Positions 4,441-23,928 of a DNA stretch of 64,000 bases are shown here, in pieces. Location of the stretch: NCBI GenBank assembly GCA_039930845.1, contig JBDTTA010000001.1:1418-65417 (forward strand), given 5' to 3'. How positions within the stretch are numbered: position 1 is the stretch's first letter; each line of letters opens with the position of its first letter. A program made the position numbers and the translations under genes. This DNA is from Gemmatimonadales bacterium. GTDB lineage: Bacteria; Gemmatimonadota; Gemmatimonadetes; Gemmatimonadales; GWC2-71-9. The notes beneath the pieces are model-generated. The model searched no databases. It worked only from the letters and a program-made list of their open reading frames with translations, and was not told the origin of the DNA.

Positions 4441-4502
4441 GGACGAGACTCCGGTGTATGCTGGACCTGGCTCGCAATAGCCAATAGCCCTCGGTCAACG
4501 GC

Positions 4503-6829: not shown

Positions 6830-8190
6830 GGTTCCCGACCGTGGCCCAAGACCCCTCCCGATCTGCGCCATTGACCGACGCTGGCCGCCTGCTGGCCGAC
6901 CTCTATCGCGTTGCTACCGAGGCCGTTAACCCGGGGCCTGCGCTGACCACGTCCCTGGGCCGGCTGTCTCCTTTCCCCTCCCGGCCACCCTGGATCCTCG
7001 CCCTCGGCAAGGCGGCGACACCGATGGCAGCGGCTGCCGTCGACGTCCTGGCCGGGCAGGGACTCGGGCCGGCCGGCGGTCTCATCGTCGCGCCGCATGC
7101 CGACCCGTCGGCGCACCCGCGCCTCGAGGTCGTCGCCGGAGACCACCCCGAGCCGGGCCAGGGCTCGCTCGCGGCCGCCGCGGCACTCGCCCGATCTGCC
7201 GACCGGATCGGGGCGGATGACGAGGTGTGGGTCCTCCTCTCGGGTGGCACCACCAGTCTGATCGGGGCGCCGGAGACCGGGATCTCCGCCTCCGACCTCG
7301 CCATGCTCTACGCGCTGCTCCTCGGCTCGGGGCTCGACATCACCGCGATGAATCGCATCCGGAAGCGATTCTCACGGTGGGGCGGTGGAAAACTCGCCCT
7401 TGCCCTCGCGCCCGCGAGGGTACGCACCTTTGTCGTCTCCGACGTCATCGGCGACGATCCGGCATCGATCGGGTCCGGGCCCTGCGTCGCCGATCCGTGC
7501 ACCGCCACGGAGGTGCGCCGGATGCTCGAGGACGCCTCGCTCTGGGATCGCATCCCGGCGGCGGCCCGCGATCTGGTGACGGCGGCTGAAGCGGGGAGAA
7601 GAGCGGAAACGCCGAAGCCCGGCGACGACGCCTTCGCGCGCGTGTCCCTCGAGTTGATCGCCAGCAACCGTCTCGCCGTGGAGGCGGCGGCACGGCACGC
7701 GGCGGCGCTGGGTCTGGTTCCCGTCGTGAACAACGGGCCGCTGGCTGGGGAGGCCGCCGCCGCAGGTGAGCGTCTGGCCACGCGCCTGTTACAAAATTGC
7801 GGCCCGTCCACCTTCCCGCAACCGGAGGAAGCGCCGAGACGAAAGTGTTTCATTCAGGGTGGGGAGACGACGGTGACGCTCGGGGACGAGCCGCACGGAC
7901 TCGGCGGCCGGTGCCAGGAGTTGGCGCTCGCCGCGGCGCGAGTGCTCGAGGGCAACTCGATTGGCGTCGCGCTCCTCGCGGCTGGCACCGATGGGCGTGA
8001 CGGACCAACCGATGCCGCCGGCGCCATCGTGGACGGCCACACCTGGCGCGCCATACGCGCGGCGGGCCGCGACCCGGCGCACGACCTCGCGGCACACGAT
8101 GCCTACCGCGCGCTCGACGCCGCCGATGCCCTGCTCCGTCCCGGCCTCACCGGGACGAACGTGATGGATGTGGTGATCGGGGTGTGCTGA
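6814..8190 (+). CDS. gckA: Glycerate 2-kinase (MOFRL / TtuD-GckA family)
   Basis: 458-aa ORF with DPASIGSGP, GGETTVTL and AAGTDGRDGPTDAAGAIVDG...GLTGTNVMD motifs typical of the DUF4147+MOFRL glycerate kinases. The start is uncertain: GTG 6814 (ORF track) or in-frame TTG 6871. Confidence 0.8.
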   Translation: MLFFTRFPTVAQDPSRSAPLTDAGRLLADLYRVATEAVNPGPALTTSLGRLSPFPSRPPWILALGKAATPMAAAAVDVLAGQGLGPAGGLIVAPHADPSAHPRLEVVAGDHPEPGQGSLAAAAALARSADRIGADDEVWVLLSGGTTSLIGAPETGISASDLAMLYALLLGSGLDITAMNRIRKRFSRWGGGKLALALAPARVRTFVVSDVIGDDPASIGSGPCVADPCTATEVRRMLEDASLWDRIPAAARDLVTAAEAGRRAETPKPGDDAFARVSLELIASNRLAVEAAARHAAALGLVPVVNNGPLAGEAAAAGERLATRLLQNCGPSTFPQPEEAPRRKCFIQGGETTVTLGDEPHGLGGRCQELALAAARVLEGNSIGVALLAAGTDGRDGPTDAAGAIVDGHTWRAIRAAGRDPAHDLAAHDAYRALDAADALLRPGLTGTNVMDVVIGVC

Positions 8191-8193
8191 GAA

Positions 8194-8820
8194 CTACGGG
8201 TGCAGCGGAAGAGTCGGGCGGTAGTCGTTGCCCACGATCACCGTCGCGTCCACCCGACGGAGCGTGTCGAGCTGGATTCTGATTCTGCCGGCGCCGAGGG
8301 CCTCGATAACATCCTTGCCCCGCCCCGGGTCTCCACGGCGAACGGCCACCCGAGTGGTATCGGTGACGCTATCGGCGTTGCCGAAGAACACGACGTCGAT
8401 CCCGTGCTCGCGCAACACCCTCGTCGCGACTCGCGCGAGCCCCTGACGCCGCGTCCCGTTCAGCACCTCCACCGTGATCCGCTCCCGCGCCGTGGGCACA
8501 GCATAGGCGTGCCCCTGGACGCGCTCGCGAGGCGGCGGCCAGAACCGCCAGACCGCGCCACCGACAGCGAGCACGAGGACCGCGCCTATCGCGAGGCTGA
8601 TGGCGAGGCGACGAGACTGTTCCAGAAGCGCACCGTCGGTTCGGGGATGATCCAGCCGGATCGCACCAATCCCGCGACGCGGTCGCGGGCAACCTCCCGA
8701 AGCACCGACCCCGGCTCGGTCGGGTAGTCGCGGGCAAGCGTGGTACGACGCTCGACGTCCCACGGGCGGCCGGGCTCGAGGTAGTCGGCGCAGTACAGAC
8801 TCCTGCCCACCATGTCCCAC
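8194..8820 (-). CDS. LytR_C (LytR cell-envelope-related transcriptional attenuator C-terminal) domain membrane protein
   Basis: One TM helix (AISLAIGAVLVLAVGGAVW), then RITVEVLNGTRRQGLARVATRVLREHGIDVVFFGNAD...VIVGNDYRP. The 5' end is unreliable. The only canonical starts (GTG 8820, GTG 8763) overlap the upstream gene by 178-235 nt. Confidence 0.6.
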   Translation of the reverse strand: MGHGGQESVLRRLPRARPPVGRRASYHACPRLPDRAGVGASGGCPRPRRGIGAIRLDHPRTDGALLEQSRRLAISLAIGAVLVLAVGGAVWRFWPPPRERVQGHAYAVPTARERITVEVLNGTRRQGLARVATRVLREHGIDVVFFGNADSVTDTTRVAVRRGDPGRGKDVIEALGAGRIRIQLDTLRRVDATVIVGNDYRPTLPLHP

Positions 8821-9170
8821 TCGGCCAGCCCCACGGAGTGGTATCTCACCGCATCGAGCACGCCCCGGTCCACCTCGCCCTCCGCCTTGGCCCGCGCGGC
8901 GCTGGCCGGGCCGTGTCGGAGCGCGGGCGGTCCCGGTGTGCTGGATGCCAGCCGCTCGAGCTCCCCCGGCGGTGCGTCACGCAGCGCATCGTGCAGCCAG
9001 ACCGCTCGGAGCCAGCGGTTTCGCTCGTTGGCGGGAATGAGCATGTCGGCGGCCCACGACGAGACGAGGGCGGCGACACGCTCGATGTGGGCAAGGCGCG
9101 CCGGAGTGACCACGGCCCAGGACGGGAGTGTCGGACGGAGTCCCGGCGCGGCGCGGCGTTCGTCGGGCAT
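8586..9170 (-). CDS. HD-domain phosphohydrolase, YqeK-like
   Basis: 194 aa with H..(ERVA)...LHDALRD...RHGPASA...VRYHS...YCADYLEPGR spacing, typical of YqeK-type HD proteins. TGATG junction with panC. Confidence 0.6.
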   Translation of the reverse strand: MPDERRAAPGLRPTLPSWAVVTPARLAHIERVAALVSSWAADMLIPANERNRWLRAVWLHDALRDAPPGELERLASSTPGPPALRHGPASAARAKAEGEVDRGVLDAVRYHSVGLAEWDMVGRSLYCADYLEPGRPWDVERRTTLARDYPTEPGSVLREVARDRVAGLVRSGWIIPEPTVRFWNSLVASPSASR

Positions 9171-10021
9171 CAGGGGAGCCCGTCACCGAGGACGATGTTG
9201 TCGATCAGCCGCGTGCGACCGACGCGCGCGGCGATGGCGACGATCGTTTCGGCACCCACGGCCGACACCGGAGCCAGCGTGCGCGGCTCGGCGATCGCGA
9301 TGTACTCCAGGCGCACCCTCGAGAACCGCGCCAGGCGCCGCAGCATGACTCTCTCTATTGCCGGAGCGCCGGTCTCGCCGCCGCGCCAGGCGGCGTTGGC
9401 ATCGCCGAGCGCGGCGCTCAGCACCGTTGCCTCGCGTCGCTCCTCCGCATCGAGATACGCGTTCCGGCTGCTGAGCGCGAGGCCATCCGCCTCCCGGACC
9501 GTCGGCACCACGATCATGTCGATCGACCAATCAAGATCGCGCACCATCTGCCGGATCAGCACCGCCTGCTGGACGTCCTTTCGCCCGAAACACACGACGT
9601 CGGGTTCCACGATGTGGAGGAGCTTGGCGACCACTGTCAGCACCCCCGCGAAGTGGCCCGGGCGCGCCGCGCCTTCCCAACGATCCGCGGTGGGACCGGG
9701 GACAACGCGAATTTCGGCGCCCGGCGGATACATCACGCCCACACCGGGAACGAAGAGCGCATCGACCCCGCGTGCGGCCGCCAGCGAACGATCGCGGTCG
9801 AGGTCGCGCGGATATCTGTCGAAATCTTCGGTGGGACCGAATTGAAGCGGATTGACGAAGATGCTCATGACGACCGTCTCGGACCGGCGGCGGGCCTCGT
9901 CCACCAACTTGAGGTGCCCTTCGTGGAGGTAGCCCATCGTGGGCACCAACCCGATCCGGTGTCCGGCGGCGCGCTCGGTGCGAAGCCATCGGCGCAAATC
10001 TGGAATCGCGTCGAAATCCAC
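9170..10021 (-). CDS. panC: Pantoate--beta-alanine ligase
   Basis: GLVPTMGYLHEGHLKLV...VMSIFVNPLQFGPTEDFDRYPR motifs. I prefer the GTG at 10021 (284 aa, 10 nt after the panB stop) over the ORF-track start at 10084, which overlaps panB. Confidence 0.9.
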   Translation of the reverse strand: MDFDAIPDLRRWLRTERAAGHRIGLVPTMGYLHEGHLKLVDEARRRSETVVMSIFVNPLQFGPTEDFDRYPRDLDRDRSLAAARGVDALFVPGVGVMYPPGAEIRVVPGPTADRWEGAARPGHFAGVLTVVAKLLHIVEPDVVCFGRKDVQQAVLIRQMVRDLDWSIDMIVVPTVREADGLALSSRNAYLDAEERREATVLSAALGDANAAWRGGETGAPAIERVMLRRLARFSRVRLEYIAIAEPRTLAPVSAVGAETIVAIAARVGRTRLIDNIVLGDGLP

Positions 10022-10031
10022 CGCGGGCCGC

Positions 10032-10841
10032 CTAGAAGCTGTGCTCGGAACCAGGATAACGCCCGTCCCGTACCTCGGCCGCATACTCCCGCACCGCCGA
10101 TCGGACCGTTTCCCCGAGCTCGGCGAAGCGCTTCAGGAATTTGGGATTGAACTGATCGTTGAGTCCCAGCATGTCGTGAAGGACGAGCACCTGTCCGTCA
10201 CAGCCGGGTCCGGCGCCGATCCCGATCGTTGGAATCGCAACTGACTTCGAAATGCGGGTCGCCAGTTCGGCCGGCAACAGCTCGAGCACGATGGCCGCCG
10301 CGCCGGCCTCCTCGAGGGCCCCGGCGTCGGCAAGCAGGCGATCGGCAGCGAGGGCGTCGCGCCCCTGCACGCGGTAGCCGCCGAGTGTGTGCACCGACTG
10401 GGGCGTGAGGCCGAGGTGCCCCATGACTGGTATGCCGCGGTCGACCAGGGCGCGCACCGTGTCCGCCATCGGCTGTCCACCTTCCAGCTTCACTCCGTGC
10501 GCCCCGGTCTCCTGGAGCACCCGGCCCGCATTCCGGATCGCTTCCTCGATCGAGACCTGATAGGTGAGAAACGGGAGGTCCACGAAGATGAGCGATCGAC
10601 GGGATCCCCGCTTCACCGAGGCGGCATGGTAAATCATCTGGTCGAGGGTGGCGCTGAGGGTCGTCTCGTGGCCGGCAAGCACCTGGTTGAGCGAATCGCC
10701 GACGAGGAGAATGTCCACGCCGGCGTCTTCGAGCAGCCGTGCGAAGCCCGCATCGTAGCAGGTGACTACCACGATCCTGCGGCCGGCGGATTTGAAGGCC
10801 GGCAGATCGAGGATATTCATCGGACGGGATTCAGCGCTCAT
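10032..10841 (-). CDS. panB: 3-methyl-2-oxobutanoate hydroxymethyltransferase
   Basis: 269 aa: VVVTCYDAGFARLLEDAGVDILLVGDSL.QVLAGHETTL...VDLPFLTYQ...GAHGVKLEGG. Confidence 0.9.
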   Translation of the reverse strand: MSAESRPMNILDLPAFKSAGRRIVVVTCYDAGFARLLEDAGVDILLVGDSLNQVLAGHETTLSATLDQMIYHAASVKRGSRRSLIFVDLPFLTYQVSIEEAIRNAGRVLQETGAHGVKLEGGQPMADTVRALVDRGIPVMGHLGLTPQSVHTLGGYRVQGRDALAADRLLADAGALEEAGAAAIVLELLPAELATRISKSVAIPTIGIGAGPGCDGQVLVLHDMLGLNDQFNPKFLKRFAELGETVRSAVREYAAEVRDGRYPGSEHSF

Positions 10842-11266
10842 CGTGTGCCATGCGATTGCAGCTCCGCCAGCTCTCGCAGCCAGAAGTCTCGGTTGGGCAG
10901 CTCGGGATGGGGAATGATAAGGTCGGGCTCGGCGACGCGCTGATCGCCGTAGCGAACGATGTCGAGATCGAGCGTCCGCGCTCCCCAGTGCTCGCCGCGG
11001 GCGCGCCCCGCCTTGCGCTCGATCGCCTGCAGCGCGTCGAGCAGCGCGTGCGGCTCGAGCCCGGTCTCGAGCACGACCATCTGATTGAGGTAGGGGGGCT
11101 GATCCAGTCCGCCGAGTGGCGGCGTCTCCTCGATGGCCGATTGGGCGAGGAGGACGGTGCCGGGCAGGTGTGCGAGGGCAACGCGCGCGGTGTTCAGGTG
11201 GGCCTCGCGGTCGCCCAGATTGCTGCCGAGCGCGACGTAGGCGCGCTCGCGCCGACGTGCCTCCAC
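10838..11266 (-). CDS. folK: 2-amino-4-hydroxy-6-hydroxymethyldihydropteridine diphosphokinase
   Basis: AYVALGSNLGDR...WGARTLDLDIV.YG......PDLIIPHPELPNRDFWL. The GTG at 11266 sits 1 nt after the upstream stop. The longer ORF-track start (11341) overlaps the upstream gene. Confidence 0.85.
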   Translation of the reverse strand: MEARRRERAYVALGSNLGDREAHLNTARVALAHLPGTVLLAQSAIEETPPLGGLDQPPYLNQMVVLETGLEPHALLDALQAIERKAGRARGEHWGARTLDLDIVRYGDQRVAEPDLIIPHPELPNRDFWLRELAELQSHGTR

Positions 11267-11267
11267 G

Positions 11268-13349
11268 TCAGGTCTCGACGACGAAATGCCGAGCGATCCG
11301 CTGCAGATCGGCCGCGACGTCGCCGAGCTCGCGAATCGCACGCTCGAGGTCCGACTGACCCGACGCCGCCTCCGACGCCCGTCGCGCCAGGGCGTCGGTG
11401 TCCGCCCTGGTACGGGTAGAGCTGGCGGCGACTCGTTCGATCTGTCCGGTGAGACCGCTCACCGCATCGAGCTGCTCCGCCGCCGTCGCGGCAATGGCCT
11501 GCGCGTGCCGCCCCGCTTCGCCGGTGGTGCCCACGATGGCCTCCAGCGCCTGGCCGGCATTGGCGCTCAACTCCTCCACGCCGGCCACGGCATCTCGCCC
11601 GCGGTCCATCGTCAGCGAGACGGTGGACACCTGCGCGGCGATTTCCTCGAGCAACGTGCGCGCTTCGCCGGCCGCGTGGAGGCTCTGGGCGGCAAGGTCG
11701 CGCACCTCGTCGGCCACTACCGCGAACCCTCTTCCCTCGGCGCCCGCGCGCGCCGCTTCGATCGCCGCATTGAGCGCGATGAGGCTGGTAAGGTCCGCGA
11801 TTTCCCTGATCGTCCCGATGAATCCCGTGATGCGCGCCGTGAGCGCCCCCAGCGACGCGACCTGATCGGCGCTGGCGGAGACGAAGCCCTTGAGCCCCAC
11901 CAGCCGGTCGATCGCCTGGGCGATCACGACGCGGTTCTTTCCCGCCACCTCCGCCGCCGTGCCGCTCGCCCTGGCGGCCTGCGCGCCCTGCGAAGCCATG
12001 GCGCGAGTGGCCGAGGCGAGGAGATCGGTCGCGCGGAGCCCGCCGGTCACGAACGCCTCGAGCTCGGTGGCCCCCTGCCGCATGCCCTGCGATGCGTCGG
12101 CGAGCGCGATCGCCGACGCGCGGAGCGACTCCGTCACGCGGACCAGCGCCGTCACCTGCAGGCCGATCTGGTCCACGGTGCTGAGCAGCGGGCGCCGGAG
12201 CTCGGCGATATGGATCGCGGTGGCCATCTGATTCGCCAGCGTGCTGAGCGCGAGGAGGTCCTTGGCGCCGTAGGCATGGCGCTTGGGATGATCCACCTCG
12301 ACGGTACCGAGCATTTCGTCGCCGAACCGGATTGGATGGATCACCATGCTGCCGACGTCGGGAATCGGCGAGCTCACCCGCGGATCGCGCCGGACATCCT
12401 TCACCACCACGGTTGCGCCGCGGGACATGGCCTCCAGGCGGAACGGTTCGGCGCCTGCGGGCGCCTCCCCCGAGCCCGTGCGCGCCAACGTCCCGCGGTA
12501 CGCGAGCATGGGACCGGTGGGCGTGACCCGGTAGACCCGGAAATCGGTCCAGTCGAGCAGCCGGTACGCGAGCCGCTCGATCTGTCCGAAGGATCCCTGG
12601 AGCGTGGCGTTGCTCGCGATCGACGCCTCCATCATGTGCACCTTGTTCAGGTCCTCCGCCCCGATGGCCTCCTCCAGAATCCTGCGCGTGAGCACGCCGA
12701 GCACGCCGAGCGCGAGGCTCACGGCGAGCCAGCCGGCGGGCGCGAGCGTGCGGATGCCCGCGACGATGATGACGGTCGCGATCAGCGTGAGCAGGTACGA
12801 GATGATTTCCCAGCGCAGGATCAGGATCTTCTCGACGTATTCGAGCTTGTCCCGGACCAGCAGGGTAAAGTAGAACAGGGCACGACTGATGAAGAAGTAA
12901 AGGCAGACCAGAATCGCGGCGGCGGGAAGCAGGTCGATCGTGAACCCGGCTCCGCCCCCCAGCGCGAGGACCGCGGCGTAGGGCCCGTACGCGGCCATGA
13001 ACGCGATGACTTCCCGGCCGGCGTTCACCAGACCGGCCCGCGGCAGCTTCCTGAGCCAGAGCACGTCAGACACGAAGACACCGGACCAGAGCCCGATGAT
13101 CACCGGTGTCGGCCCCACGCACACCGCGCCCACAAGCGCGGGAATGCTCGACTGCGTGAGATAGGAATATTTGCTGAGGCGCACCGGCGCCGCGCGCAGT
13201 GCCGCCACGGCGGTCGCCAGGAAGACGCACGTGAGCGGCTGGAGCAGCCAGCGGAGATCGGTGGCCAGCGCACCGGCGGCGATGGCCAGGCCGCCGAGCC
13301 ACAGCACCATGGCGTAGCGCTCGATGAGGCGCTGCAGATCGATGTTCAT
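11268..13349 (-). CDS. Multi-pass membrane sensor with GAF domain and methyl-accepting chemotaxis protein (MCP) signalling domain
   Basis: 693 aa. About 7 hydrophobic helices in aa 10-235. A GAF-like segment follows (...[13 protein letters not shown]...[18 protein letters not shown]...). The C-terminal coiled coil carries the MCP hairpin-tip signature [34 protein letters not shown]. No HAMP-like segment recognised. Confidence 0.8.
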
Positions 13350-14137
13350 GCGGCCGCCCCGCGGTCGAGCGCCTGGCGGAGTGACGCGAGGAAGCGGCGC
13401 ATCCCGGCGACACCATCGTGCCCCAGGACATCGACGAGCGCGCTGCCCACGACCACGCCATCGGCCAATCGTCCCACCTCGGCTGCCTGCACTGGCGTGC
13501 TGATGCCGAAACCGACGGCGACGGGAAGGCTCGTCGCCTGGCGGAGCTGAGCCACCGATTCCGCGAGACCCCTGGAGAGCGAGGCGGTCGCCCCGGTCAC
13601 GCCGAGGCGCGCCACGAGGTACACGAACCCCTCCGCGCCCGCCACCGCGGCGGCCAGACGTTCGGGGCGGGTCGTGGGCGCGACGAGACGGATGAGATCG
13701 AGCGGACTCGCCTGGACCGCCGACTCGACGGCGGGATCGCTTCCGGCCGGCAGGTCGGTGAGCAGCAGTCCACCGATCCGGAGGGCATCCGCCTCGCGCA
13801 GAAAGCGTTCGACTCCATAGCGGAGCACCGGGTTGAAGTAGCTGAAAATCACGACCGGGTGCGAGAGCTGGGCGCGGGCGATGAGCTCCAGCGTGCCGGT
13901 CAGGGTCATCCCCGCCTGCAAGGCCTCGAAGGTGGAGCGCTGAATCGTCGGGCCATCGGCGAGCGGATCGCTGAACGGCACGCCGACCTCGATGATGTCG
14001 GCAAACTCGTCCGCGGCGCGCAGCGCATCGAGGCTCTCCTGCGCCGACGGATACCCCGCGGTGAGATACGGGATCAGCGCGGTGCGCCGCCCGGCGTCAA
14101 GCGCCTCCCAGGCCACCGAGAGCCGGGACTCAGACAA
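13346..14137 (-). CDS. trpA: Tryptophan synthase alpha chain
   Basis: 263 aa: [11 protein letters not shown]...[18 protein letters not shown]...[16 protein letters not shown] start with an 8-nt overlap of the upstream HD-GYP gene. Confidence 0.9.
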
Positions 14138-15587
14138 AATAGTCGCCGACCGTCAGGCCATACCGACCCGGGTTGGTGACCTTGACGATGGAGCGCCGGA
14201 ATGCGCCGGAGTCGTCCTTGTCGCCGAGACTCACCAGCGTGCCGGGCGGCGGAATGGCCCCGCCATTCACCTCCACGGCGAGTCTGACCAGCGGACGGTT
14301 GAGCTGCTGGCTGTCGGGATCGGGGGCGGCGACGATGGCGATCTCGAGCGTGTCGAGAATCACGCAGGTCCCCACCGGATAGACACCGATGAGATTCACC
14401 AGCGCCTTGACGAGCAGCGGGTCGTACCCGCGCCTGGGATTCTCCAGCATCTCCCGGAGCACCTGGTCGGGCTCGATGGGAATCGTCTGGTAGGTGCGTC
14501 TCGTGGTGGCGGCGTCGAAGCCGTCGGCCACCGAGACGATACGCGAGAAGATGTGGAGCTTCCGTGGACGGACCACCTTCGGATACCCGGTCAGGTCGGT
14601 CTTCATGTGATGCTCATGGGCGACGAGGATCGTCCGGAAGGGCACCTCGTCCTGGCTCTTCAGGTGGAAGAGGGTGAGCGCACCGAGCCACGGATGGCCC
14701 TGCATCACGCGCCACTCCTGCTCGTCGAGGCCGGTCGTCTTGTGCAGAATATCGAGGGGGACCCGTGCCTTGCCCACGTCGTGCAGCAGCGCGGTCATGC
14801 CGAGATCGTAGAGCTGGAGCCGGGAGAGGCCGAGCTTCTTGCCGAGGGCCACCGAGAAGATGCACACATTTACAGAGTGGGTGAACGTGTATTCGTCGTA
14901 ATCGCGGATGGTGGTGAGCCCGACGAGCGAGGTCTCGTTGTTGAGCACCTGGTCCACGATGAGCTGCACCGCGCGCTTCACCTTCTTCACGCTCCCGGCG
15001 CGGCCAAGCCGGGCGCCGGTGATCACTTCCCTGGTGACCGCCACCCCCTGTGAATACACGCGCTTGGCGGCCTCGCGCTGCTCCTCGGTCTCCGCCTCGT
15101 GCTCGTTGTGCGTCGCGCGATCGATACCGATGCCCTGCACCGCGCCCTGCTGCAGGCGCGCCTCCAGCTCGTCGAAGCGGGTATCGGCATCGCCCTCCCG
15201 CTCGGACAGGCTGAGGAGGATGCTCAGGAAGATCTGCCACTCCCGTCGCGTGACGGACGAGTGCACCCGGAGTCCGCCGATGTCGAAGGCCCGGAGCATC
15301 GTGAGGATGTGGCTGAACGAGGCGTAGTTGTCGAGCTCGAGCCGGAGCCGCGTGGCGTTGACGAAGATGAAGTCGCCCGCCAGGCGGAGCTCCAGATCAG
15401 CCTCGACCTCCAGCAGCGATTTGCCGGCGACGTCGAGGTCGTCGAGCGCCTTCTGCACGGTGGCGTTCTCCACCGGATACAGCTTGAGGCTGCGGAGCGC
15501 GGTATAGAGCGCGAGCAGCAGGGTGCGGCCGCCATGGCGGAGCTGTCCGTCCGACGCGCGCGCGCTCGCTTCGCCGGCGTGGCTCAC
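14130..15587 (-). CDS. HD-GYP domain protein (putative c-di-GMP phosphodiesterase) with N-terminal unknown module
   Basis: 485 aa. HD-GYP core THSVNV...ALLHDVGKARVP...QGHPWLGA...VAHEHHMKTDLTGYPK...ADGFDAATTRRTY. GTG start in a GTGA overlap with the upstream gene. Confidence 0.8.
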   Translation of the reverse strand: MSHAGEASARASDGQLRHGGRTLLLALYTALRSLKLYPVENATVQKALDDLDVAGKSLLEVEADLELRLAGDFIFVNATRLRLELDNYASFSHILTMLRAFDIGGLRVHSSVTRREWQIFLSILLSLSEREGDADTRFDELEARLQQGAVQGIGIDRATHNEHEAETEEQREAAKRVYSQGVAVTREVITGARLGRAGSVKKVKRAVQLIVDQVLNNETSLVGLTTIRDYDEYTFTHSVNVCIFSVALGKKLGLSRLQLYDLGMTALLHDVGKARVPLDILHKTTGLDEQEWRVMQGHPWLGALTLFHLKSQDEVPFRTILVAHEHHMKTDLTGYPKVVRPRKLHIFSRIVSVADGFDAATTRRTYQTIPIEPDQVLREMLENPRRGYDPLLVKALVNLIGVYPVGTCVILDTLEIAIVAAPDPDSQQLNRPLVRLAVEVNGGAIPPPGTLVSLGDKDDSGAFRRSIVKVTNPGRYGLTVGDYFV

Positions 15588-17263
15588 GACGCGCTCTCCC
15601 GAAGCGCGCGACTCACGGCGTTCCGGACCACCAGGTCCTTGTCCTCCGCGGCGCGACGCAGCACGTCGCGGGCCTCGACGGTGCGGATCTTTCCGAGCGC
15701 GATGGCGGCGCAGGCCCTGGTCTCCGACGCCTCCTTCATCCGCAACAACCCGCGTGGAAGCAGGATTGCGCTCATCGTCTTGAGGCCGGCCGCGCCGGCG
15801 ATGGCGCCGTACGCCTCGAAGAAGGCCATCTTTTCCGTGAGATCCATCCCCTTCACGCCCTTCCCGAGCACGATGGCCTCCACCCGGCGCTGCGCCCCCT
15901 TGTACCCCCGCGCCGCCACGACCCGGACCGCCGCCAACCGGACGCCGCGATCTTCATCCTCCAGCGCTTTCTCGATGAGGGCGAGCGCGGCCGGCGTGGC
16001 GAGCTGCGCGAGCGTCTGCACCGACGCCAGGCGGACGGCCGGATCCGGATGGAGGATCGTCTCGCCGAGTCCCGGGACCGTCTGATGGAGGTTGAGCCGT
16101 CCGCACACGCCGATCACGGAGACGAGCGCCGCCGAATCCTTGTCGCGGAGAATGCGGAGGACCTCGGCGGTGTGCGCTTCGGCCAGTCGGTCGGCGACGC
16201 CTTCGAGCAGTGTTCTGAGCGGCGCCGACGAGAGCACGGGCAGCCAGCCGAGGATCGGTTCCAGCGCCGTCGCACGCAGCTCGCGCAGCACTTCCGCCAC
16301 TTGCGGCTCGGTCGCGATTGCCGACGACTCGTCGAGCGACTGGATGAGCTGGCTCACGATGGCCGCCTCGCTCAGCCGGCTGACGAAGCCCTCCAGCCGC
16401 TCCCCCTGTCCCGGGAGAATCCCCGAGGTGCGGCTCGACAGCAACCGGCACTCGCGGATGATCGTTGCGGCAGCCCGGAAATCCCGGGCATTCAGGAAGG
16501 TGGGGAACAACTGCTCCATGATGTCGAGGATCTCGTCGCGAATGTCCTGCCCCTGCTCCAGCTCAAACAGGTCGAACAGGGCGGCGAGCGCCGAGGCCCG
16601 CACGTCCCGGCGGTATTCCTCCTCGATCTCGGCGGCGATCGTATTGATCTCGTTCTCGTCCAGGAAGTACAGGGTGGAATCGAAGTCCTCCACGTCCACC
16701 ACGCCCTTGGGGCGCGGCGGCGCTTCCTCGGCGGCCTGGGCGTGTCGCTCGCCCGCGCCACCCGCGTTGTACGTCCCGCTGCGTTCCGGCAGCGAACCGC
16801 CGCCTTCCCCGAAGAACTCGATGAACTTGTACTGGATGAACTGGAATTCCTGCTCCCAGAGCAACGTCAGCAGATCGTCCCCTGCATCCGATGTCAGGAA
16901 TCGGGCCCGGTTGATCAGCTCGAGGAAGCGGGACAGCTCCTCCGCTTCGGCGCCGCGGCGGAGCGTCAGCGAGCGCATGCCGTCCTTGAACACGCCCCAG
17001 GCGATACTCTCGCTCTTGTTCGGCTGATGATAGACCACCTGCTCTTCCCAGACGAAATCGGTTTCCGCCACCGTGAGGACGACTTCGTCGTGGCTCTCCC
17101 AGACCGGCTCGAAGGCCGCGCGGAGGTTGTCGGTCGAGCGTTGGTGAATCGGATTGTTGGGGAGGTACATGTGGTAGGCCCGGAGCGCCTTCACCAGACT
17201 GTTCAACAGCTCGGTGATCAGCGACGCCGGGAGTGCGTCCGCCGAGGGCGTCGGCCGGGTCAC
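15584..17263 (-). CDS. HEAT-repeat protein with N-terminal module resembling that of the adjacent HD-GYP protein
   Basis: The C-terminal half has HEAT/PBS-lyase-like repeats ([17 protein letters not shown]..., [17 protein letters not shown]..., [16 protein letters not shown]). I place the start at GTG 17263 (GTGA overlap with the trpB stop). The ORF-track start 17476 would overlap trpB by 217 nt. Confidence 0.6.
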
Positions 17264-18462
17264 ACCGTGTGCCCCAGCAGCGCGGCGACGTGCGCGACGT
17301 CCTTGTCGCCGCGGCCGCTGAGGCAGACGAGCACGAGCGCGTCGTCGTCCCACTGCCCCGCCATTCGCCGCACCCACGCGAGCGCATGCGCGGTCTCGAG
17401 CGCCGGGATGATGCCCTCCGTTCGGCAGAGTGACCGAAAGGCGTCGAGCGCCTCCGCGTCGGTGGCCGATTCGCATGCGACGCGCCCGCTGTCGCGGAGG
17501 AAGCTGAGCTCGGGCCCCACGCCCGGGTAGTCGAGTCCCGCCGAAATGGAATGTGCCGGCGACACCTGGCCATCGGCGTCCTGCAGGAGGTAACTCAGGC
17601 TGCCGTGCAGCACGCCGGGCGAGCCGGCGCCGAGCGTGGCGCTGTGGTGTCCCGACTCGAGCCCCTCGCCGGCGGCCTCGACCCCGACCAGGCGGACATC
17701 GCGATCATCGAGGAAGCCGGAGAAGATGCCCATCGCGTTCGATCCGCCGCCCACGCACGCCACGACGCTGTGGGGAAGGCGACCGTAGCGCGACAGCATT
17801 TGTGCGCGCGCCTCGCGACCGATCACCGACTGGAAGTCGCGCACCATGCGCGGATACGGATCGGGGCCGACGACCGAACCGATGATGTAGTGGGTCGTGG
17901 GGACGTTGGTGACCCAGTCACGAAGCGCCTCATTGGTCGCATCCTTGAGCGTCCGGGTGCCCGAGTCCACCGGCACGACGGTGGCGCCCAGTAACTCCAT
18001 GCGATACACGTTGAGCCGCTGGCGGGCCACATCCTCGGCGCCCATGTACACCACGCACTCGAGGCCGAAGCGCGCGCATACCGTGGCCGTCGCCACGCCG
18101 TGCTGGCCCGCCCCGGTCTCGGCGATGATGCGCCGCTTGCCCATTCTGAGTGCGAGCAGCGCCTGCCCGATCGTGTTGTTGATCTTGTGCGCGCCGGTAT
18201 GATTGAGGTCCTCCCGCTTGAGCACAACCGTGGCGCCCACTTCCGCGCCCAGGCGCGGCGCCTCTGAAATCGGCGACGGGCGCCCGACGAAGTCGGCAAG
18301 CAGCTGTTCGTAATCCGCCCAGAACGGCGGATCTCCTCGGACGGAATCGTACAGCGCGGCGAGGTCGTCCAGCGCCGCGACGAGCGTTTCAGGCACGTAA
18401 CGGCCGCCGTACGGGCCGAATCGTCCGCCCACCGCTCGTTCAGGAGACAGCGCTATGGCCAC
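17260..18462 (-). CDS. trpB: Tryptophan synthase beta chain
   Basis: 400 aa: [13 protein letters not shown]...[16 protein letters not shown] (PLP lysine)...GGGSNAMG. Confidence 0.95.
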
Positions 18463-19084
18463 ACACCGCCCCCATGAAGCGCGCGATTTTCGCTGAATCC
18501 TTGATTCCCGGCAGGCTCTCGACGCCGGAACTTACATCCACGACATCGGGACGAACGAGTACCGCCGCCTCGGCAACGGTCGCCGGGTCGAGCCCGCCCG
18601 CCAGCACCATTGGATGTCCGGCCAGACGAAGACGAGCGGCACGCGCCACGGCCAGATCGAGCGCGACGCCCGCGCCACCGGAAAGATGCGACACCATCGG
18701 TTCCACGAGAACGGCATCGGAATCGGGCACCGATGAGTCGAGCACATCGACATCCGCAGGAGCGGCGATGCGTACCACCCGCCAGACCACGAGTCCCTCG
18801 CGCCGCAGCCGGCTCGCCGCCTCCCGGCCATACGGGCCGTGGAGCTGCGCCCCCTTCAGCCTCGCACCGTCACTTGTATGGAGAATCTCTTCGACGGTCT
18901 GATCCCCGAAGATACCGAAGACCGGGATGGCGCCCCCGGCACGCGAGATCTCGGAAGCCAGCGGCACCGAGATCTGACGGGGTCCCCCCGCAAAAACGAC
19001 GCCCAGGTAGGACGCACCCGCCTCCACGGCGGCCTCGGCGTCACCCGGCCGGGTCAATCCACAGATCTTGACCCTAACGGGCAT
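18440..19084 (-). CDS. trpF: Phosphoribosylanthranilate isomerase
   Basis: 214 aa: [31 protein letters not shown]...[11 protein letters not shown]. Confidence 0.85.
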
Positions 19085-19862
19085 GTCGAGCGACCTCCGT
19101 GAGCGTGGCCAGCAGCGCCGCGGGATCCCGGGCGGCCGATAGTGCGGTACCCATCAGCACGGCATCCGCCCCGGCCGCCGCCGCGGCTTCGACGTCAACC
19201 CGCGAAGCCATGCCGCTCTCGGCCACCACGAGCACCTCACGCGGCACCGAGCGGATGATGTTCCACGCCCTGGCGGTGTCGATCCGGAAGGTATCGAGAT
19301 CGCGGCTGTTGACGCCGATGAGCCGGGCGCCACAGTCGAGCGCCACCGCAAGCTCCCCTCGATCGTGGACCTCCACCAGGGCGTCGAGTCCCCACGTCGC
19401 CGCCGAGGCGAGGAGACTGCGAAGGCGCAATGGGAGGAGCGCGCGGACGATGAGCAGGATGGCGGAGGCGCCCGCCGCGCGCGCCTCGAGGATCTGCACC
19501 TCATCGAGGATGAAGTCCTTACGGAGCACCGGGACGGAAACGCTCCGGGTGACCAGGCGAAGATCGTCGAGCGAGCCGCCAAAGAACGGGCCATCCGTCA
19601 GCACGGAAATCGCCGAGGCGCCGGCGGCGGCATAGCACGCCGCGAGCGAGACGGGGTCGAGGTCTTCGCGGATCGGCCCCGCGCTTGGCGATCTGCGCTT
19701 GACCTCCGCAACGACGGCCACCTCGGATCCGGCCAGCGCGCGCTCGAACGACCGCAGGGCGGGCGTCGCGGAGGCCTCGCGCTCGAGTTCCGCTCGCCGC
19801 CCATGGAGAGCGGGGAGCTGCCGGCGTGTGGAGTCCAGAATCTGTTCGAGCGAAACAGGCAT
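19074..19862 (-). CDS. trpC: Indole-3-glycerol phosphate synthase
   Basis: Internal ATG at 19862 (MPVSLEQILDSTRR...) preceded by GAAGGA. Motifs VVAEVKRRSPSAG, SVLTDGPFFGGS, PVLRKDFI. The ORF-track N-terminal extension to 20054 runs antisense into lexA and looks non-coding. Confidence 0.9.
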   Translation of the reverse strand: MPVSLEQILDSTRRQLPALHGRRAELEREASATPALRSFERALAGSEVAVVAEVKRRSPSAGPIREDLDPVSLAACYAAAGASAISVLTDGPFFGGSLDDLRLVTRSVSVPVLRKDFILDEVQILEARAAGASAILLIVRALLPLRLRSLLASAATWGLDALVEVHDRGELAVALDCGARLIGVNSRDLDTFRIDTARAWNIIRSVPREVLVVAESGMASRVDVEAAAAAGADAVLMGTALSAARDPAALLATLTEVARHAR

Positions 19863-19869
19863 CTTGTCC

Positions 19870-19910
19870 TTCGGCCGGTCTTCGGGTAGTCTTATTCGGC
19901 CTCTATTCGG
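19870..19910. repeat. Four phased TTCGG direct repeats in the trpC/lexA divergent spacer
   Basis: TTCGG at 19870, 19881, 19895 and 19906 (spacing 11/14/11 nt). The two right copies extend to TATTCGG. Confidence 0.4.
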
Positions 19911-19939
19911 TGGCCAACCCGAGCGACGAGGAGAATGCC

Positions 19940-20548
19940 ATGCCCCTGACCAAGCGACAGAGCGAAATTCTCGGCTATCTGCACGGACATATCCAGCAGC
20001 AGGGATACGCGCCGAGCTTCGAGGAAATAGCCGAGCGGTTCGGCTTCCAGTCACTCGCCACGGTCCACGAGCATCTCACTAATCTCGAGCGCAAGGGCTA
20101 CATCAAGCGCGCCTACAACGAAAGCCGGTCCATCGAGGTCCTGCCTCCGCGCGGCACGTCGGCAGCCAGCGACATTCCGCTCCTCGGCAAGGTGGCGGCA
20201 GGCACTCCGATCGAATCGCTCATGCACCAGGAAACCATCGCCGTACCCGACCACATGCTGCCACGGCGCGGCCCCAACTACGCGCTGCGCGTGCAGGGCA
20301 CTTCCATGGTCGACGAGCACATCATGGACGGCGATGTCGTCGTCGTGCACGGCAAGCAAACAGCGGAAAACGGCGAAATGGTCATCGCGCTCGTCAACGG
20401 CAGCGAAGCCACGGTCAAGAAGTTCTATCGCGAGCCGGGTGGCTGGATCAGGTTGCAGCCGGCCAATTCCAGCATGCAGCCCATGCGGTTTCAGGAGCGA
20501 GAAGTGCTCATCCAGGGCGTGGTCGTCGGCGTCATTCGGAAGTACTAG
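19940..20548 (+). CDS. lexA: LexA repressor
   Basis: Internal ATG at 19940 preceded by GAGGAG. MPLTKRQSEILGYL... winged-helix N-terminus, VAAG cleavage site, GTSM (Ser) and TVKKF (Lys) of the S24 peptidase dyad. 202 aa. Confidence 0.9.
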   Translation: MPLTKRQSEILGYLHGHIQQQGYAPSFEEIAERFGFQSLATVHEHLTNLERKGYIKRAYNESRSIEVLPPRGTSAASDIPLLGKVAAGTPIESLMHQETIAVPDHMLPRRGPNYALRVQGTSMVDEHIMDGDVVVVHGKQTAENGEMVIALVNGSEATVKKFYREPGGWIRLQPANSSMQPMRFQEREVLIQGVVVGVIRKY

Positions 20549-20549
20549 C

Positions 20550-21575
20550 TCAGCCCGACCGGAGTCGCGCCAGCGCGTCGGCGCCGGCCCCCGTATCGAG
20601 CGATTCACGCGCCCGCACCGCCGACTCCTCGAGCGACCATCCCCGTCCCGATACGTAGAGCGCAGTCGCGGCGTTCAGGATCACCGCACACCGCTCCACC
20701 GCCCTTCCCCGCCCCCGCAGCAGCGCCTCGATCCGGGTCGCGTTTTCGGCCGGTGTTCCGCCGGCCAGCCCGTCCAGCCCGACGCAATCCAGACCGTGCG
20801 TCGCCGGATCGATCTCCCGCACAGTCACGTTTCCGTTGACCTCCCACGCATCCGTCACGCCCGATGGGCTCACCTCGTCCATGCCGACTCTGGCGTGAAC
20901 CACAATCGCGTGCGTGGCGCCCAGGTGCTGGAGCGCACCCGCAACCAGCCGCCCGCGACTTTCGTCCGCCACACCGACCACCTGCCTGACTACCCCCGCG
21001 GGATTCACCAGCGGCCCGAGCACGTTCATGATCGTGGCAACACCGAGCTCTTTTCGCACCTGTGAGACGTGCCGCATCGCCGGATGGTACGCCGGTGCGA
21101 AAAGGAAGACGATGCCCGCGCGGCGCAACACCTCCGCCGCGCGATCCGGCGCCAGCTCGATATCGATCCCCAGCGCCTCGAGCACATCGGCCGAGCCCGA
21201 GCGCGAGGTGTAGCTGCGATTGCCGTGCTTCGCGACTCCGATGCCCGCTCCCGCCACGACGAACGCCGCCGCCGTCGAGAGATTGAGCGTGCCAACCTTG
21301 CCACCCCCCGTCCCGCAGGTGTCCACCAGCGAGCCGGCGTCTTCAACCTCGAGCCGGACCATCGCCGAGCGGAGCGCCACGGCGGCACCCGCAATTTCCT
21401 CGGCGGTCTCGCCCTTGGAGCGCAGGCCGATGAGCAATCCGGCGATCTGCGCTGGAGTCGCATCGCCGCGCATGACCACACCGAACGCCGCCGCGGCATC
21501 CTCCGCGGAAAGCGAGGCACCGCGTGCGAGCTCCTGAAGAGCCGAACGGAGGGCGGCGTCCTGGGTCACGGGCAT
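20550..21575 (-). CDS. trpD: Anthranilate phosphoribosyltransferase
   Basis: 341 aa: GLLIGLRSKGETAEEI...VDTCGTGGGKVGTLNLSTAAAFVVAGAG..VAKHGNRS.TS.SGSADVLEALG. Confidence 0.9.
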   Translation of the reverse strand: MPVTQDAALRSALQELARGASLSAEDAAAAFGVVMRGDATPAQIAGLLIGLRSKGETAEEIAGAAVALRSAMVRLEVEDAGSLVDTCGTGGGKVGTLNLSTAAAFVVAGAGIGVAKHGNRSYTSRSGSADVLEALGIDIELAPDRAAEVLRRAGIVFLFAPAYHPAMRHVSQVRKELGVATIMNVLGPLVNPAGVVRQVVGVADESRGRLVAGALQHLGATHAIVVHARVGMDEVSPSGVTDAWEVNGNVTVREIDPATHGLDCVGLDGLAGGTPAENATRIEALLRGRGRAVERCAVILNAATALYVSGRGWSLEESAVRARESLDTGAGADALARLRSG

Positions 21576-21615
21576 GCGCGGCCGGAGGTGGTGGAGGTCG
21601 GTGAAAGCGACGGAA

Positions 21616-21645
21616 AGTGTATCGGAGAAGAGGCTCTTTTGTCAA
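21616..21645 (-). promoter_or_regulatory. Candidate sigma70-like promoter for trpD (TTGACA-18 nt-TACACT on the minus strand)
   Basis: Perfect TTGACA (21645-21640), 18-nt spacer, TACACT (21621-21616), about 40 nt upstream of the trpD ATG. The -35 lies inside the palindrome TTGTCA-ATCG-TGACAA (21639-21654). Confidence 0.45.
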
Positions 21646-21667
21646 TCGTGACAAGCAGTTGCGTAAC

Positions 21668-21696
21668 TTGCCCGGGGGGTGCGAAACGGCTAGATT
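21668..21696 (+). promoter_or_regulatory. Candidate promoter for truA (TTGCCC-17 nt-TAGATT), implying a leaderless or near-leaderless mRNA
   Basis: TTGCCC 21668-21673, 17-nt spacer, TAGATT 21691-21696. The ATG lies 8 nt after the -10, with no Shine-Dalgarno between them. Confidence 0.35.
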
Positions 21697-21704
21697 CCGG
21701 GCCG

Positions 21705-22514
21705 ATGAGCCGGACATTTCTCGCCACCCTCCACTTCGATGGCACCGGGTTCCTCGGGTGGCAGCGCCAGCCGTCCGGCCGCTCCGTCCAACTCGAATTC
21801 GAGCGTGTCCTGGAGCGATTGTTTGAGCGTCCGACAGTGGCGCATGCGTCGGGCCGCACCGACGCCGGCGTACACGCCGAGGGCATCGGCGTGAGCTTCA
21901 GCGCCCCGGCGCAGTGGCAAGCTCCCGCCGTGCATCGCGCCCTCAACGCCCTCCTGCCGCGGGACTGCTGGATCGAGTCGGTGCGCCCGGCGCGGCCCGA
22001 CTTCCACGCGCGGAGGAGCGCCATCGCGCGCCGCTATCGCTACGACATCGGCCTCGATGCCGCCTCGGCGTCGCCCTTCCGGCGACCGTTCGAATGGTCC
22101 CTCGCCCGCGCTCTCGACCCGACGGCGCTTGGTGATTCCGCCGGACGGGTTCTGGGACAACACGACTTCCGCGCATTCGCCGCCAAGGGCGAGCCCAGGC
22201 CCCACTACCTCTGCACCATCCGGCTCTGCCGGTGGCTCGAGCGCCCCGAGGGGCGTGGGGTCAGCCTCCACATCGAGGCCGATCGCTTTCTCCACCACAT
22301 GGTGCGCATGCTCGTGGGGACCATGGTGGACATCGGCATCGGTCGGCGGCCGGCGGCGGACATCGACATGCTCCTCGCCAGCGATGACAATCAGGCGACG
22401 AGTCCGCCGGCGCCCGCCCAGGGGCTGTATTTCGTTTGCGCGACGTATCCGCCGGACTGTTTCGCGCTACCCGTGGTAGAGGAGGAGGCGCATGCGCTGG
22501 TGCACGACGCGTAA
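21705..22514 (+). CDS. truA: tRNA pseudouridine(38-40) synthase
   Basis: Internal ATG 21705: MSRTFLATLHFDGTGFLGWQRQP......GRTDAGVHA (catalytic Asp)...FLHHMVR.LVG. The ORF-track extension back to 21069 is antisense to trpD. Confidence 0.85.
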   Translation: MSRTFLATLHFDGTGFLGWQRQPSGRSVQLEFERVLERLFERPTVAHASGRTDAGVHAEGIGVSFSAPAQWQAPAVHRALNALLPRDCWIESVRPARPDFHARRSAIARRYRYDIGLDAASASPFRRPFEWSLARALDPTALGDSAGRVLGQHDFRAFAAKGEPRPHYLCTIRLCRWLERPEGRGVSLHIEADRFLHHMVRMLVGTMVDIGIGRRPAADIDMLLASDDNQATSPPAPAQGLYFVCATYPPDCFALPVVEEEAHALVHDA

Positions 22515-23928
22515 GGGCGCCCTGCTCGTCTGCCTTGCCACGCTCGGCTGCCGGGATAATCCGCCGGTCGAAAGCGCGATGTCGGTGGCCTCCGCCGCGG
22601 CGCAGGTGCAGGCAGCCGCACAGACGCGGAAGGCCGGGGTCCAGCTGCACACAAACGACTCACGCCGCACCGCGCTGGTGACCGCCACGGAGCGCGTCGC
22701 GTCCGCAGTCGTGTCGATCAACGTCACATCGCACCGCGAGGCCCCCGCGCGATCGCCCTGGGACTTCTTCTTCGTGCCCGAGGGCGCCCGCCTCGTGCAG
22801 GGTTACGGTACCGGGTTCGTCATCCGCCCCTCCGGGATCATCGTCACCAACCAGCACGTCGTGGCGGACGCCGAGAGAGTGGTCGTCACGCTCTCCGACG
22901 GCAGCGACCTCCCCGCCAGAGTGCTCGGCGAAGACCCGCTCACCGATATCGCCGTCCTGAAGGTCGACCGGCAGGGACTGACGCCCATCGTCCCGGGCCG
23001 GAGCACGGACCTGATGATCGGCGAATGGGTAGTGGCCCTCGGTAATCCGTACGCGTATCTCCTCGGCAATGCCGAGCCGACGGTCACGGTCGGCGTGGTC
23101 AGCGCGGCGGGGCGCAATATCCTTCCAAGCGGCGACCAGACCGGTCTCTACCTCGACATGATTCAGACCGATGCCGCCATCAATCCGGGCAACTCCGGCG
23201 GTCCGCTCACGAACGCACTCGGCGAAGTCGTGGGCGTGAACTCCTCGATCTTCAGCAGCAGCGGGGGCTCGGTCGGACTCGGCTTCGCCATCCCCATCGA
23301 GCGCGCCCTGCGTGTGGCTGATGAGATCATCCGCAAGGGCAGCGTGCGTCGGGCGTGGGTGGGGCTCGAGGTGGAGGGCGCTTCCGCCATGCGGGACTGG
23401 AAGAGTCAGGGCGGCGTCGTGGTGTCGAGTGTCGCGCCGGGCGGCCCGGCGGCCAAGGCCGGCATTCACGCCGGCGATGTGCTCGTGGAAGCCAACGGGC
23501 GCCGGCTCAGAAATTATCTCGACTGGGAAGCGGTAAAGCTCGACCTTCACGTGGGCGATGGCGTGGCGCTGACGACACGAACCGACAACGACACCACGAG
23601 CCACCGGATCGTGACCGGGGATCTGCCGACCGTCACCGCCGAAAAACTCACAGTGCTTCAGGATCTGCAGCTCATCACGATTACGCCGTCGGTGCAGGCC
23701 GAGCGAGGTGTCAGGAGCGAGCACGGCGCGCTGATCTTCAAGATGTCCCCGCAGGTGAGCCGGGCAACGGGCCTTGAGGCGGGGGACGTGATCGTGGCCG
23801 TCGACCGGGAACCGGTGCGGAGCGCGGAGCAGGTGCAGCAGCTCATGAACGTTCGTCCAGGCCAGCTCATCCGCGTCTACTTCGAGCGCGACGGCCAGAT
23901 TTCCTTCACCGATCTCGCCTTCCGATGA
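22492..23928 (+). CDS. HtrA/DegP-family serine protease with PDZ domains, probable lipoprotein
   Basis: 478 aa. Signal/lipobox LLVCLATLGC. Trypsin-like core GTGFVI...TNQHVV (His)...DIAVLKV (Asp)...TDAAINPGNSGGPL (Ser). Two PDZ-like segments follow. Confidence 0.85.
   Translation: MRWCTTRKGALLVCLATLGCRDNPPVESAMSVASAAAQVQAAAQTRKAGVQLHTNDSRRTALVTATERVASAVVSINVTSHREAPARSPWDFFFVPEGARLVQGYGTGFVIRPSGIIVTNQHVVADAERVVVTLSDGSDLPARVLGEDPLTDIAVLKVDRQGLTPIVPGRSTDLMIGEWVVALGNPYAYLLGNAEPTVTVGVVSAAGRNILPSGDQTGLYLDMIQTDAAINPGNSGGPLTNALGEVVGVNSSIFSSSGGSVGLGFAIPIERALRVADEIIRKGSVRRAWVGLEVEGASAMRDWKSQGGVVVSSVAPGGPAAKAGIHAGDVLVEANGRRLRNYLDWEAVKLDLHVGDGVALTTRTDNDTTSHRIVTGDLPTVTAEKLTVLQDLQLITITPSVQAERGVRSEHGALIFKMSPQVSRATGLEAGDVIVAVDREPVRSAEQVQQLMNVRPGQLIRVYFERDGQISFTDLAFR

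Follow-up and report, generated by a model that had tools for sequence, protein, structure and literature searches.

How can trpB and trpA, the genes for the two subunits of tryptophan synthase, come to be separated by 3.1 kb of unrelated coding sequence, and what are the intervening genes doing there? The question is raised by a 64-kb stretch of DNA from a Gemmatimonadales genome (termed the window, always in its whole length), in which a gene for a HEAT-repeat protein and a gene for an HD-GYP protein lie on the same strand between trpB and trpA (Table 1). A previous sequence-only reading had described this arrangement and had proposed that the two genes are an integrated part of the operon rather than a recent insertion, that they encode a signalling module whose dosage is tied to tryptophan synthase expression and, speculatively, that this module responds to tryptophan or indole. 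Its gene order, its coordinates and its overlaps of 4, 4, 8 and 4 nucleotides (nt) at the successive junctions all hold when read in the sequence. As an answer to the question we consider it reasonably probable that the pair is a self-contained cassette for a cyclic-dinucleotide phosphodiesterase and that a housekeeping operon took it up long ago between its trpB and trpA genes.

Conservation and coupling of the inserted genes

A scan with one genome per species yielded 389 genomes encoding a relative of the HEAT protein, and the locus counts given below cover the best 80 of these 389. All 80 loci belong to Gemmatimonadales or Gemmatimonadota. The order trpB-HEAT-HDGYP-trpA is found in 66 of them, 13 further loci are consistent with it and cut by a contig end, and the single exception is L078 (see below). 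The commonest full pattern, present in at least 39 loci, reads trpD / lexA (antisense) / trpC-trpF-trpB-HEAT-HDGYP-trpA-MCP-folK-panB-panC-HD. Six divergent loci (L083–L086, L089 and L091), with HEAT proteins 39–49% identical, also keep trpB-HEAT-HDGYP-trpA. Because the arrangement and its overlaps recur across dozens of species, they are more than a product of chance. Adjacent trpB and trpA genes, which the earlier reading had named as the observation that would speak against it, were not seen among close relatives. The locus carries no mobility genes, and no flanking repeats surround the insert beyond short imperfect ones at chance level, as are typical of high-GC DNA. Nor is there a shift in composition: the HEAT and HD-GYP genes have a GC content of 0.66–0.67 and a GC content at third codon positions of 0.88–0.89, trpB and trpA have 0.69–0.71 and 0.85, respectively, and the surrounding region lies at about 0.66–0.72. 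On the evidence of gene order and composition, the HEAT/HD-GYP genes were inserted long ago rather than recently and form an integrated component of the operon, as had been suggested. Variation is found elsewhere in the loci. The trpF gene is missing in L084, L089 and L091, and the GAF/MCP gene in L004, in L084 (with folB in its place) and in all stand-alone loci described below; from this distribution the GAF/MCP gene is best seen as an accessory which came and went in the embedded clade and lies outside the core pair.

The junctions from trpB to the GAF/MCP gene are without exception overlaps of stop and start codons, and a GGGAG Shine-Dalgarno-like motif upstream of the HD-GYP start is conserved across loci. 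At the HD-GYP/trpA junction, the independently made gene annotations of L084 and L085 place trpA at the same −8 start. The HD-GYP gene ends with TAT TTT GTC TGA, so that the Phe codon TTT and the G of GTC together provide the TTG start codon of trpA, and TTTGTCTGA at this overlap is present in 65 sequences. TTT is a rare codon here; it accounts for 9 of the 101 Phe codons (9%) in the window operon and for 12.5% across loci, and occurs a single time in the HD-GYP gene. The loci in which no trpA follows HD-GYP (L078, L081, L082, L087, L088 and L090) have TTC instead of TTT in six of six cases. This contrast, which is drawn from related sequences and does not constitute a formal probability, is what selection for the overlapping trpA start would produce, and at least the HD-GYP/trpA overlap appears to be under purifying selection. 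Overlaps of −4 and −1 are described in a published study (PMC10666635) as giving tight translational coupling. The overlaps are conserved, and the rare codon that provides the trpA start has been retained solely in loci with a downstream trpA; co-expression of the HEAT/HD-GYP pair with tryptophan synthase is therefore very likely and apparently under selection. For TrpA to be made, ribosomes most likely have to complete the HD-GYP gene. The idea of a dosage-tied signalling module thus stands with respect to co-expression; it has to be amended insofar as the pair is self-contained and also occurs without trp genes.

Autonomy and predicted activity of the HEAT/HD-GYP pair

Defined by its N-terminal 365 residues, the family of the HEAT protein comprises 2014 representatives (E ≤ 1e-3), nearly all of them 555–600 residues long, and the named relatives of both proteins all belong to Gemmatimonadota. 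The HD-GYP gene directly follows the HEAT gene in every locus examined, including six stand-alone pairs (L081, L082, L087, L088, L090 and L092) in unrelated surroundings, with no trp gene within 8–10 kb. The HEAT and HD-GYP proteins gave congruent midpoint-rooted neighbour-joining trees, in which a stand-alone clade, likewise placed in Gemmatimonadota, is split from its trp-embedded sister clade and L078 is nested within the latter. Judging from this congruence and the invariable adjacency, the two genes co-evolve and are obligately paired. The locus of L078 (DASTSO010000117.1, 8800–17500), whose HEAT protein is 57% identical to that of the window, has lost trpD, trpC, trpF, trpB, trpA and truA and has kept lexA, HEAT-HDGYP-MCP and folK-panBC; the GTGA junction between HEAT and HD-GYP is intact and the pair lies 560 nt from lexA. 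Since L078 kept the pair after losing the trp genes at this place, the pair needs no neighbouring trp genes. Either the L078 genome belongs to a tryptophan auxotroph or its trp genes have moved elsewhere.

No third gene is common to the stand-alone loci. The proteins encoded downstream of the pair in L081, L088 and L090 were considered as a conserved third component and rejected, as they are mutually unrelated and unlike the MCP protein. L088 and L092 share neighbours on both sides (upstream, Fer2_2 and DUF3187 proteins; downstream, an ABC-F ATPase and an aminotransferase), and the stand-alone context therefore seems to be conserved in at least this one sub-lineage. Two apparent fusions of the partners were also discarded. 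P0347 of L090 (738 residues), a potential Rosetta stone protein joining HEAT and HD-GYP, has a frameshift-like junction on a long-read contig of 2x coverage with fragmented genes and is most likely a frameshift artefact; a 1068-residue open reading frame in L078 proved to be an open alternative frame when the frames were checked.

The HEAT protein is composed of an α/β domain (residues ~13–150), a disordered linker (150–196) and a helical solenoid (200–559), according to an AlphaFold2 model with a pLDDT of 87 overall and above 90 for the helical residues 200–559. In a PDB fold search the solenoid retrieved generic alphaRep/HEAT/ARM matches only. The HD-GYP protein consists of an N-terminal domain (~16–157), a linker helix, the HD-GYP domain (~228–400) and a conserved C-terminal β domain (405–485). 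Comparison of diverse alignments of the two N-terminal domains with hhalign gave a probability of 92% and an E-value of 6e-7 over 110 columns in register, and the predicted order of secondary structure elements, H-H-E-E-E-H-E-H-H-E, is the same in both. Weaker methods applied to the same two regions gave a non-significant BLASTP match (E 0.6) and an hhalign probability of 25% with shallow alignments. Based on the profile comparison and the common topology, the N-terminal domains are considered homologous. Neither a meaningful PDB profile match nor any match above the Pfam threshold was obtained for this shared domain. The HEAT protein probably pairs with the enzyme via the shared domain and controls, localizes or targets it. 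Our literature search on HD-GYP proteins combined with HEAT proteins and on trp operons of Gemmatimonadetes retrieved nothing.

In the HD-GYP protein the catalytic metal site is well preserved. The best sequence matches in the PDB are V-cGAP3 (VCA0931, 5z7c; E 3.5e-25) and PmGH (4mcw; E 7e-17), both of them active enzymes like PA4781, which also aligns, as do DvhD and Bd1817, and the metal ligands and the GYP motif of V-cGAP3 and PmGH align with those of the window protein. The PmGH residues H189, H221, D222, H250, H276, H277 and D305 correspond to H237, H269, D270, H298, H326, H327 and D355; in the trp-embedded homologues none of these seven binuclear ligands varies, nor does any residue of G334-Y335-P336 (70 of 70). 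The third-metal glutamate of PmGH (E185) is replaced by the invariant Tyr233, as in V-cGAP3, which assigns the protein to the binuclear subgroup of HD-GYP enzymes; members of this subgroup typically stop at pGpG (Galperin and Chou, bioRxiv 10.1101/2021.11.05.467447). Other motifs deviate. KPG reads K-T-T-G with K283 kept, HHE reads HHM, and RxY[K/R] reads R-x-Y-Q, in which R364 and Y366 are kept and the lysine found in V-cGAP3 and PmGH is replaced by Gln367 (in 62 of 70 homologues); changes in KPG and RxY[K/R] may or may not alter the substrate (bioRxiv 10.1101/2021.11.05.467447). The conserved ligands suggest that the HD-GYP protein is likely to be an active binuclear-metal cyclic-dinucleotide phosphodiesterase. 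It would probably convert c-di-GMP to pGpG, although its substrate may instead be 3′3′-cGAMP. In the stand-alone clade the GYP motif is present in 38 of 38 sequences, Ala or Ser takes the place of the D355 equivalent in 25 of 38, and the HDxGK lysine (K273) is Met in 20 of 38. Because of these replacements many stand-alone enzymes may be impaired or inactive, unlike the embedded ones.

Among known HD-GYP proteins, those of the Bd1817 family (DUF3391-HD-GYP; Bd1817, PA4108 and VC2497) have a comparable layout; they too are single cytoplasmic proteins, in which an N-terminal domain of ~120–150 residues is joined by a long linker helix to HD-GYP at the C terminus. Bd1817 was the top Foldseek match of the model, with an E-value of 7e-7 over 340 columns and a TM score of 0.56 on the target, but the root mean square deviation is 19 Å and the pLDDT of the model 74, so that a resemblance of the overall folds is tentative. 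In other respects the window protein differs from this family. DUF3391 (PF11871) scores 14.4 bits (E 0.056), below the cut-off of 27.8, and matches with its profile positions 92–135 in the linker; the best score among relatives (P0419, 25.4 bits) is also below this cut-off. The N-terminal domain opens with two helices and not with four strands, a conserved C-terminal β domain is added, and the enzyme has an obligate HEAT neighbour with the same N-terminal domain, a type of partner for which our literature searches gave no example. The sensor domains of V-cGAP3 (a tandem HD-GYP) and PmGH (GAF) differ from this N-terminal domain as well.

Origin and role of the insert

Because lexA on the opposite strand separates trpD from trpC, trpD is a separate unit, and the long operon extends from the trpC start (ATG at 19862) through folK, panB and panC, which corrects the implied picture of a single trp operon. 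Its putative promoter is shared with the divergent lexA gene. The 77-nt region between both genes contains four repeats on the lexA strand, TTCGG-N6-TTCGG-N9-TTCGG-N6-TTCGG. TTCGG-N6-TTCGG occurs twice in the 64-kb window against 0.25 expected matches, both in the lexA/trpC region only, and the motif is still found beside lexA in L078. The repeats are a candidate LexA operator, which would place the trpC...panC operon under SOS control; their 11-bp direct-repeat spacing recalls the alphaproteobacterial GTTC-N7-GTTC box. An Rfam scan of positions 8000–23000 gave zero matches, hence no attenuator, T-box or other Rfam element, and an attenuator in the lexA/trpC leader is ruled out because 77 nt are too short. 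Nothing points to Trp-responsive control of the operon.

Consistent with these data we propose a scenario in which the two-gene signalling cassette was captured between trpB and trpA in the ancestry of a large Gemmatimonadales clade. The host operon would have been trpC-trpF-trpB-[HEAT-HDGYP]-trpA-(MCP)-folK-panB-panC with the promoter common to divergent lexA. The position of the insert might have become locked in, since its removal would also need to re-establish trpB-trpA expression exactly. The HD-GYP protein would act as a cyclic-dinucleotide phosphodiesterase, and the HEAT protein would combine an N-terminal domain like that of the enzyme with a solenoid where the enzyme has its catalytic part, this solenoid serving to bind some other protein or target. 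The effect of the location would then be co-expression with core biosynthetic genes and not a tryptophan-specific function. Several points weigh against this scenario. An internal promoter inside trpB may exist, and L091 has a gap of 59 nt before the HEAT gene. The stand-alone pairs could be paralogues of embedded ones present within one and the same genome, which would weaken the polarity of the capture and leave the argument from L078 intact. The very long retention between trpB and trpA could reflect an adaptive link with tryptophan synthase. Moreover, heterodimerization of HEAT and HD-GYP through the shared domain is inferred, and the altered RxY[K/R], KPG and HHE motifs make the substrate assignment of the HD-GYP protein tentative.

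The points just named lead to alternative explanations, the most serious of which concerns the enzyme itself: the HD-GYP protein might not be a c-di-GMP phosphodiesterase but act on another nucleotide such as 3′3′-cGAMP or serve mainly as a binding or scaffold protein. The best PDB match is the cGAMP-specific V-cGAP3, which has the same Tyr at the position of PmGH E185, and the exchange of the RxY[K/R] lysine affects a motif in which changes have been linked to cGAMP use; inactive HD-GYP proteins acting via protein contacts are known as well (Galperin and Chou, bioRxiv 10.1101/2021.11.05.467447). However, HdgA, with Ser in place of that lysine, still hydrolyses c-di-GMP (bioRxiv 10.1101/2021.11.05.467447), and neither the HD and GYP motifs nor any of the binuclear ligands vary; we regard this alternative as unlikely, albeit less so than those that follow. 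Independent expression of the insert, with a promoter of its own in the 3′ part of trpB, trpA made from an internal transcript or by reinitiation only, and a dosage untied from trpCFB, is improbable. It would suit the general knowledge that signalling proteins are usually needed far below the level of biosynthetic enzymes, the pair in L078 must be expressed from its place near lexA without trp genes, and L091 has its gap upstream of the HEAT gene. Against it stand the zero intergenic space in the window and in 64 of 67 loci, the failure to find a minus-strand sigma-70-like site immediately upstream of position 17263 (matches on this strand occur at 21645 and 19282 only, in a scan which is weak for this phylum) and the failure to find a terminator-like site at the gene ends.

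A coupling of metabolism and signalling would assign more meaning to the location: the HEAT solenoid would bind TrpA or TrpB, or the N-terminal domains would sense Trp, indole or serine, and cyclic-dinucleotide turnover would report tryptophan synthesis. Such a coupling would explain why the exact position between trpB and trpA is kept over a deep divergence, with HEAT identities down to ~39%, and why coupling to trpA is under selection; the uncharacterized N-terminal domain in both proteins could bind a ligand, and the embedded clade keeps the full catalytic set, which many stand-alone relatives, with their D355 replacements, do not. Yet the pair exists without trp genes in six loci and outlives their loss in L078, the same operon contains folate and pantothenate genes, a Trp-responsive leader is lacking, and the scores of TrpB and TrpA are those of normal members of their families. 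We therefore judge this explanation quite improbable. The more specific version of a metabolic checkpoint, in which the shared domain senses indole, serine, Trp or indole glycerol phosphate or the solenoid docks on TrpA/TrpB, is given a very low probability. If it were true, flux through the last tryptophan step would set the breakdown of the second messenger, and perhaps motility via the GAF/MCP protein, and the embedded clade would have kept an active enzyme for this purpose, whereas the stand-alone relatives let a metal ligand decay. A specific tryptophan/indole link is without direct support, and the existence of the pair apart from trp genes speaks against one; the tryptophan- or indole-responsive role put forward at the outset is accordingly rated well below the captured, self-contained cassette.

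Non-trp genes between trpB and trpA are known. Kagan et al. 2008 (PMC2395257), citing Xie et al. 2003, mention them for Burkholderia, for some Flavobacterium and for a single contig from the Sargasso Sea, and name truA and folate genes as recurrent neighbours of trpF/B/A. These cases share with the window the unrelated same-strand genes between the subunit genes and the truA/folate neighbours. In contrast, the insert of the window consists of two signalling-type genes (3.1 kb), overlaps at every junction, is found in at least 72 loci and carries a selection signature at the codon level. In Sinorhizobium, trp genes are co-transcribed with other pathways and split over several units (trpFBA-accD-folC and ppiD-trpDC-moaC-moeA; PMC6614838); these mixed operons keep trpB and trpA adjacent, whereas the foreign genes of the window split the subunit pair.

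The locus indicates that trpB and trpA, although adjacent almost universally, can be parted by 3.1 kb of unrelated genes and remain apart for very long evolutionary periods, with subunit expression apparently rescued by the succession of start/stop overlaps. A simple, testable mark of selection for coupling is offered by the rare codon at the trpA start. The pair itself, an HD-GYP enzyme and a HEAT protein with a common N-terminal domain, forms an uncharacterized module that is apparently Gemmatimonadota-wide. The HEAT partner could represent a new way to regulate or target HD-GYP phosphodiesterases, enzymes about whose sensor domains little is understood. For annotation, the locus serves as a warning that operon position is a poor guide to function, as the same pair occurs elsewhere without trp genes.

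Operon layout and neighbouring genes

Table 1. Features of the trp locus in the window, with their positions and the scores or counts on which the assignments are based
Feature	Position	Strand	Evidence
lexA, 202 residues	19940-20548	+	LexA_DNA_bind 76 bits; Peptidase_S24 104 bits
Divergent lexA/trpC control region, 77 nt	19863-19939	.	near-invariant in ~70 loci
trpC	19074-19862	-	IGPS domain; true start ATG, read in sequence
trpF	18440-19084	-	PRAI domain
trpB, β chain of TrpB1 type, 400 residues	17260-18462	-	TIGR00263 599.6 bits (cut-off 392.45); PALP domain
GTGA overlap, trpB stop / HEAT start	17260-17263	-	read in sequence; -4 in 64/67 loci
HEAT-repeat gene, 559 residues	15584-17263	-	HEAT_2 (PF13646) 73.9 bits (Pfam threshold 27.7)
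GTGA overlap, HEAT stop / HD-GYP start	15584-15587	-	read in sequence; -4 in 63/66 loci
HD-GYP gene, 485 residues	14130-15587	-	HD_5 58.2 bits; HD, HH and GYP motifs present
8-nt overlap, HD-GYP / trpA	14130-14137	-	HD-GYP TGA 14132-14130, trpA TTG at 14137; -8 in 58/66 loci
trpA, α chain, 263 residues, TTG start	13346-14137	-	TIGR00262 215.8 bits (cut-off 102.35)
ATGA overlap, trpA stop / MCP start	13346-13349	-	read in sequence; -4 in 46/54 loci
Membrane GAF/MCP-signalling gene, 693 residues	11268-13349	-	MCPsignal 101.6 bits (threshold 34.6); GAF_2 37.5 bits
folK, panB, panC and small HD-domain gene	8586-11341	-	HPPK, Pantoate_transf, Pantoate_ligase and HD domains

Both tryptophan synthase subunits, TrpB1 and TrpA, are matched at equivalog level. 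The TrpB2-type model scores 165.6 on the trpB product, far below its cut-off of 366, and TrpB is 66–91% identical to its counterparts in related loci. The HEAT protein corresponds with 100% identity and coverage to the NCBI-annotated protein P0001 (559 residues) of a Gemmatimonadales metagenome-assembled genome. The longest open reading frame at this place (15584–17476, 630 residues) was rejected as the gene, since P0001 starts at 17263 and the homologues have 559–566 residues. A search against the PADLOC defence families gave a marginal HEAT-ARM match only.

At the upstream end, lexA ends 2 nt from the trpD stop; the order trpD / lexA (antisense) / trpC is kept in essentially all related loci, and lexA is annotated at the same place in L084, L085, L089 and L091. 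A minus-strand open reading frame between trpD and trpC (20051–20608, 185 residues, "orf185") is domainless and junk-like, lies antisense to LexA and was not retained as a gene. Downstream of trpA, the GAF/MCP protein has about seven hydrophobic segments in residues 12–225 and contains the conserved MCP hairpin-tip sequence. Neighbours of the operon genes here are folK and truA. After panC, the conserved block ends with the small HD-domain protein (194 residues, 8586–9170, minus strand), which is followed by a LytR_C-domain protein in relatives. In L085, panD is inserted after panC. In L083, a 437-residue GAF-domain protein (4279–5592) is encoded directly upstream of trpD and overlaps it, which places another signalling-type gene on a trp gene.

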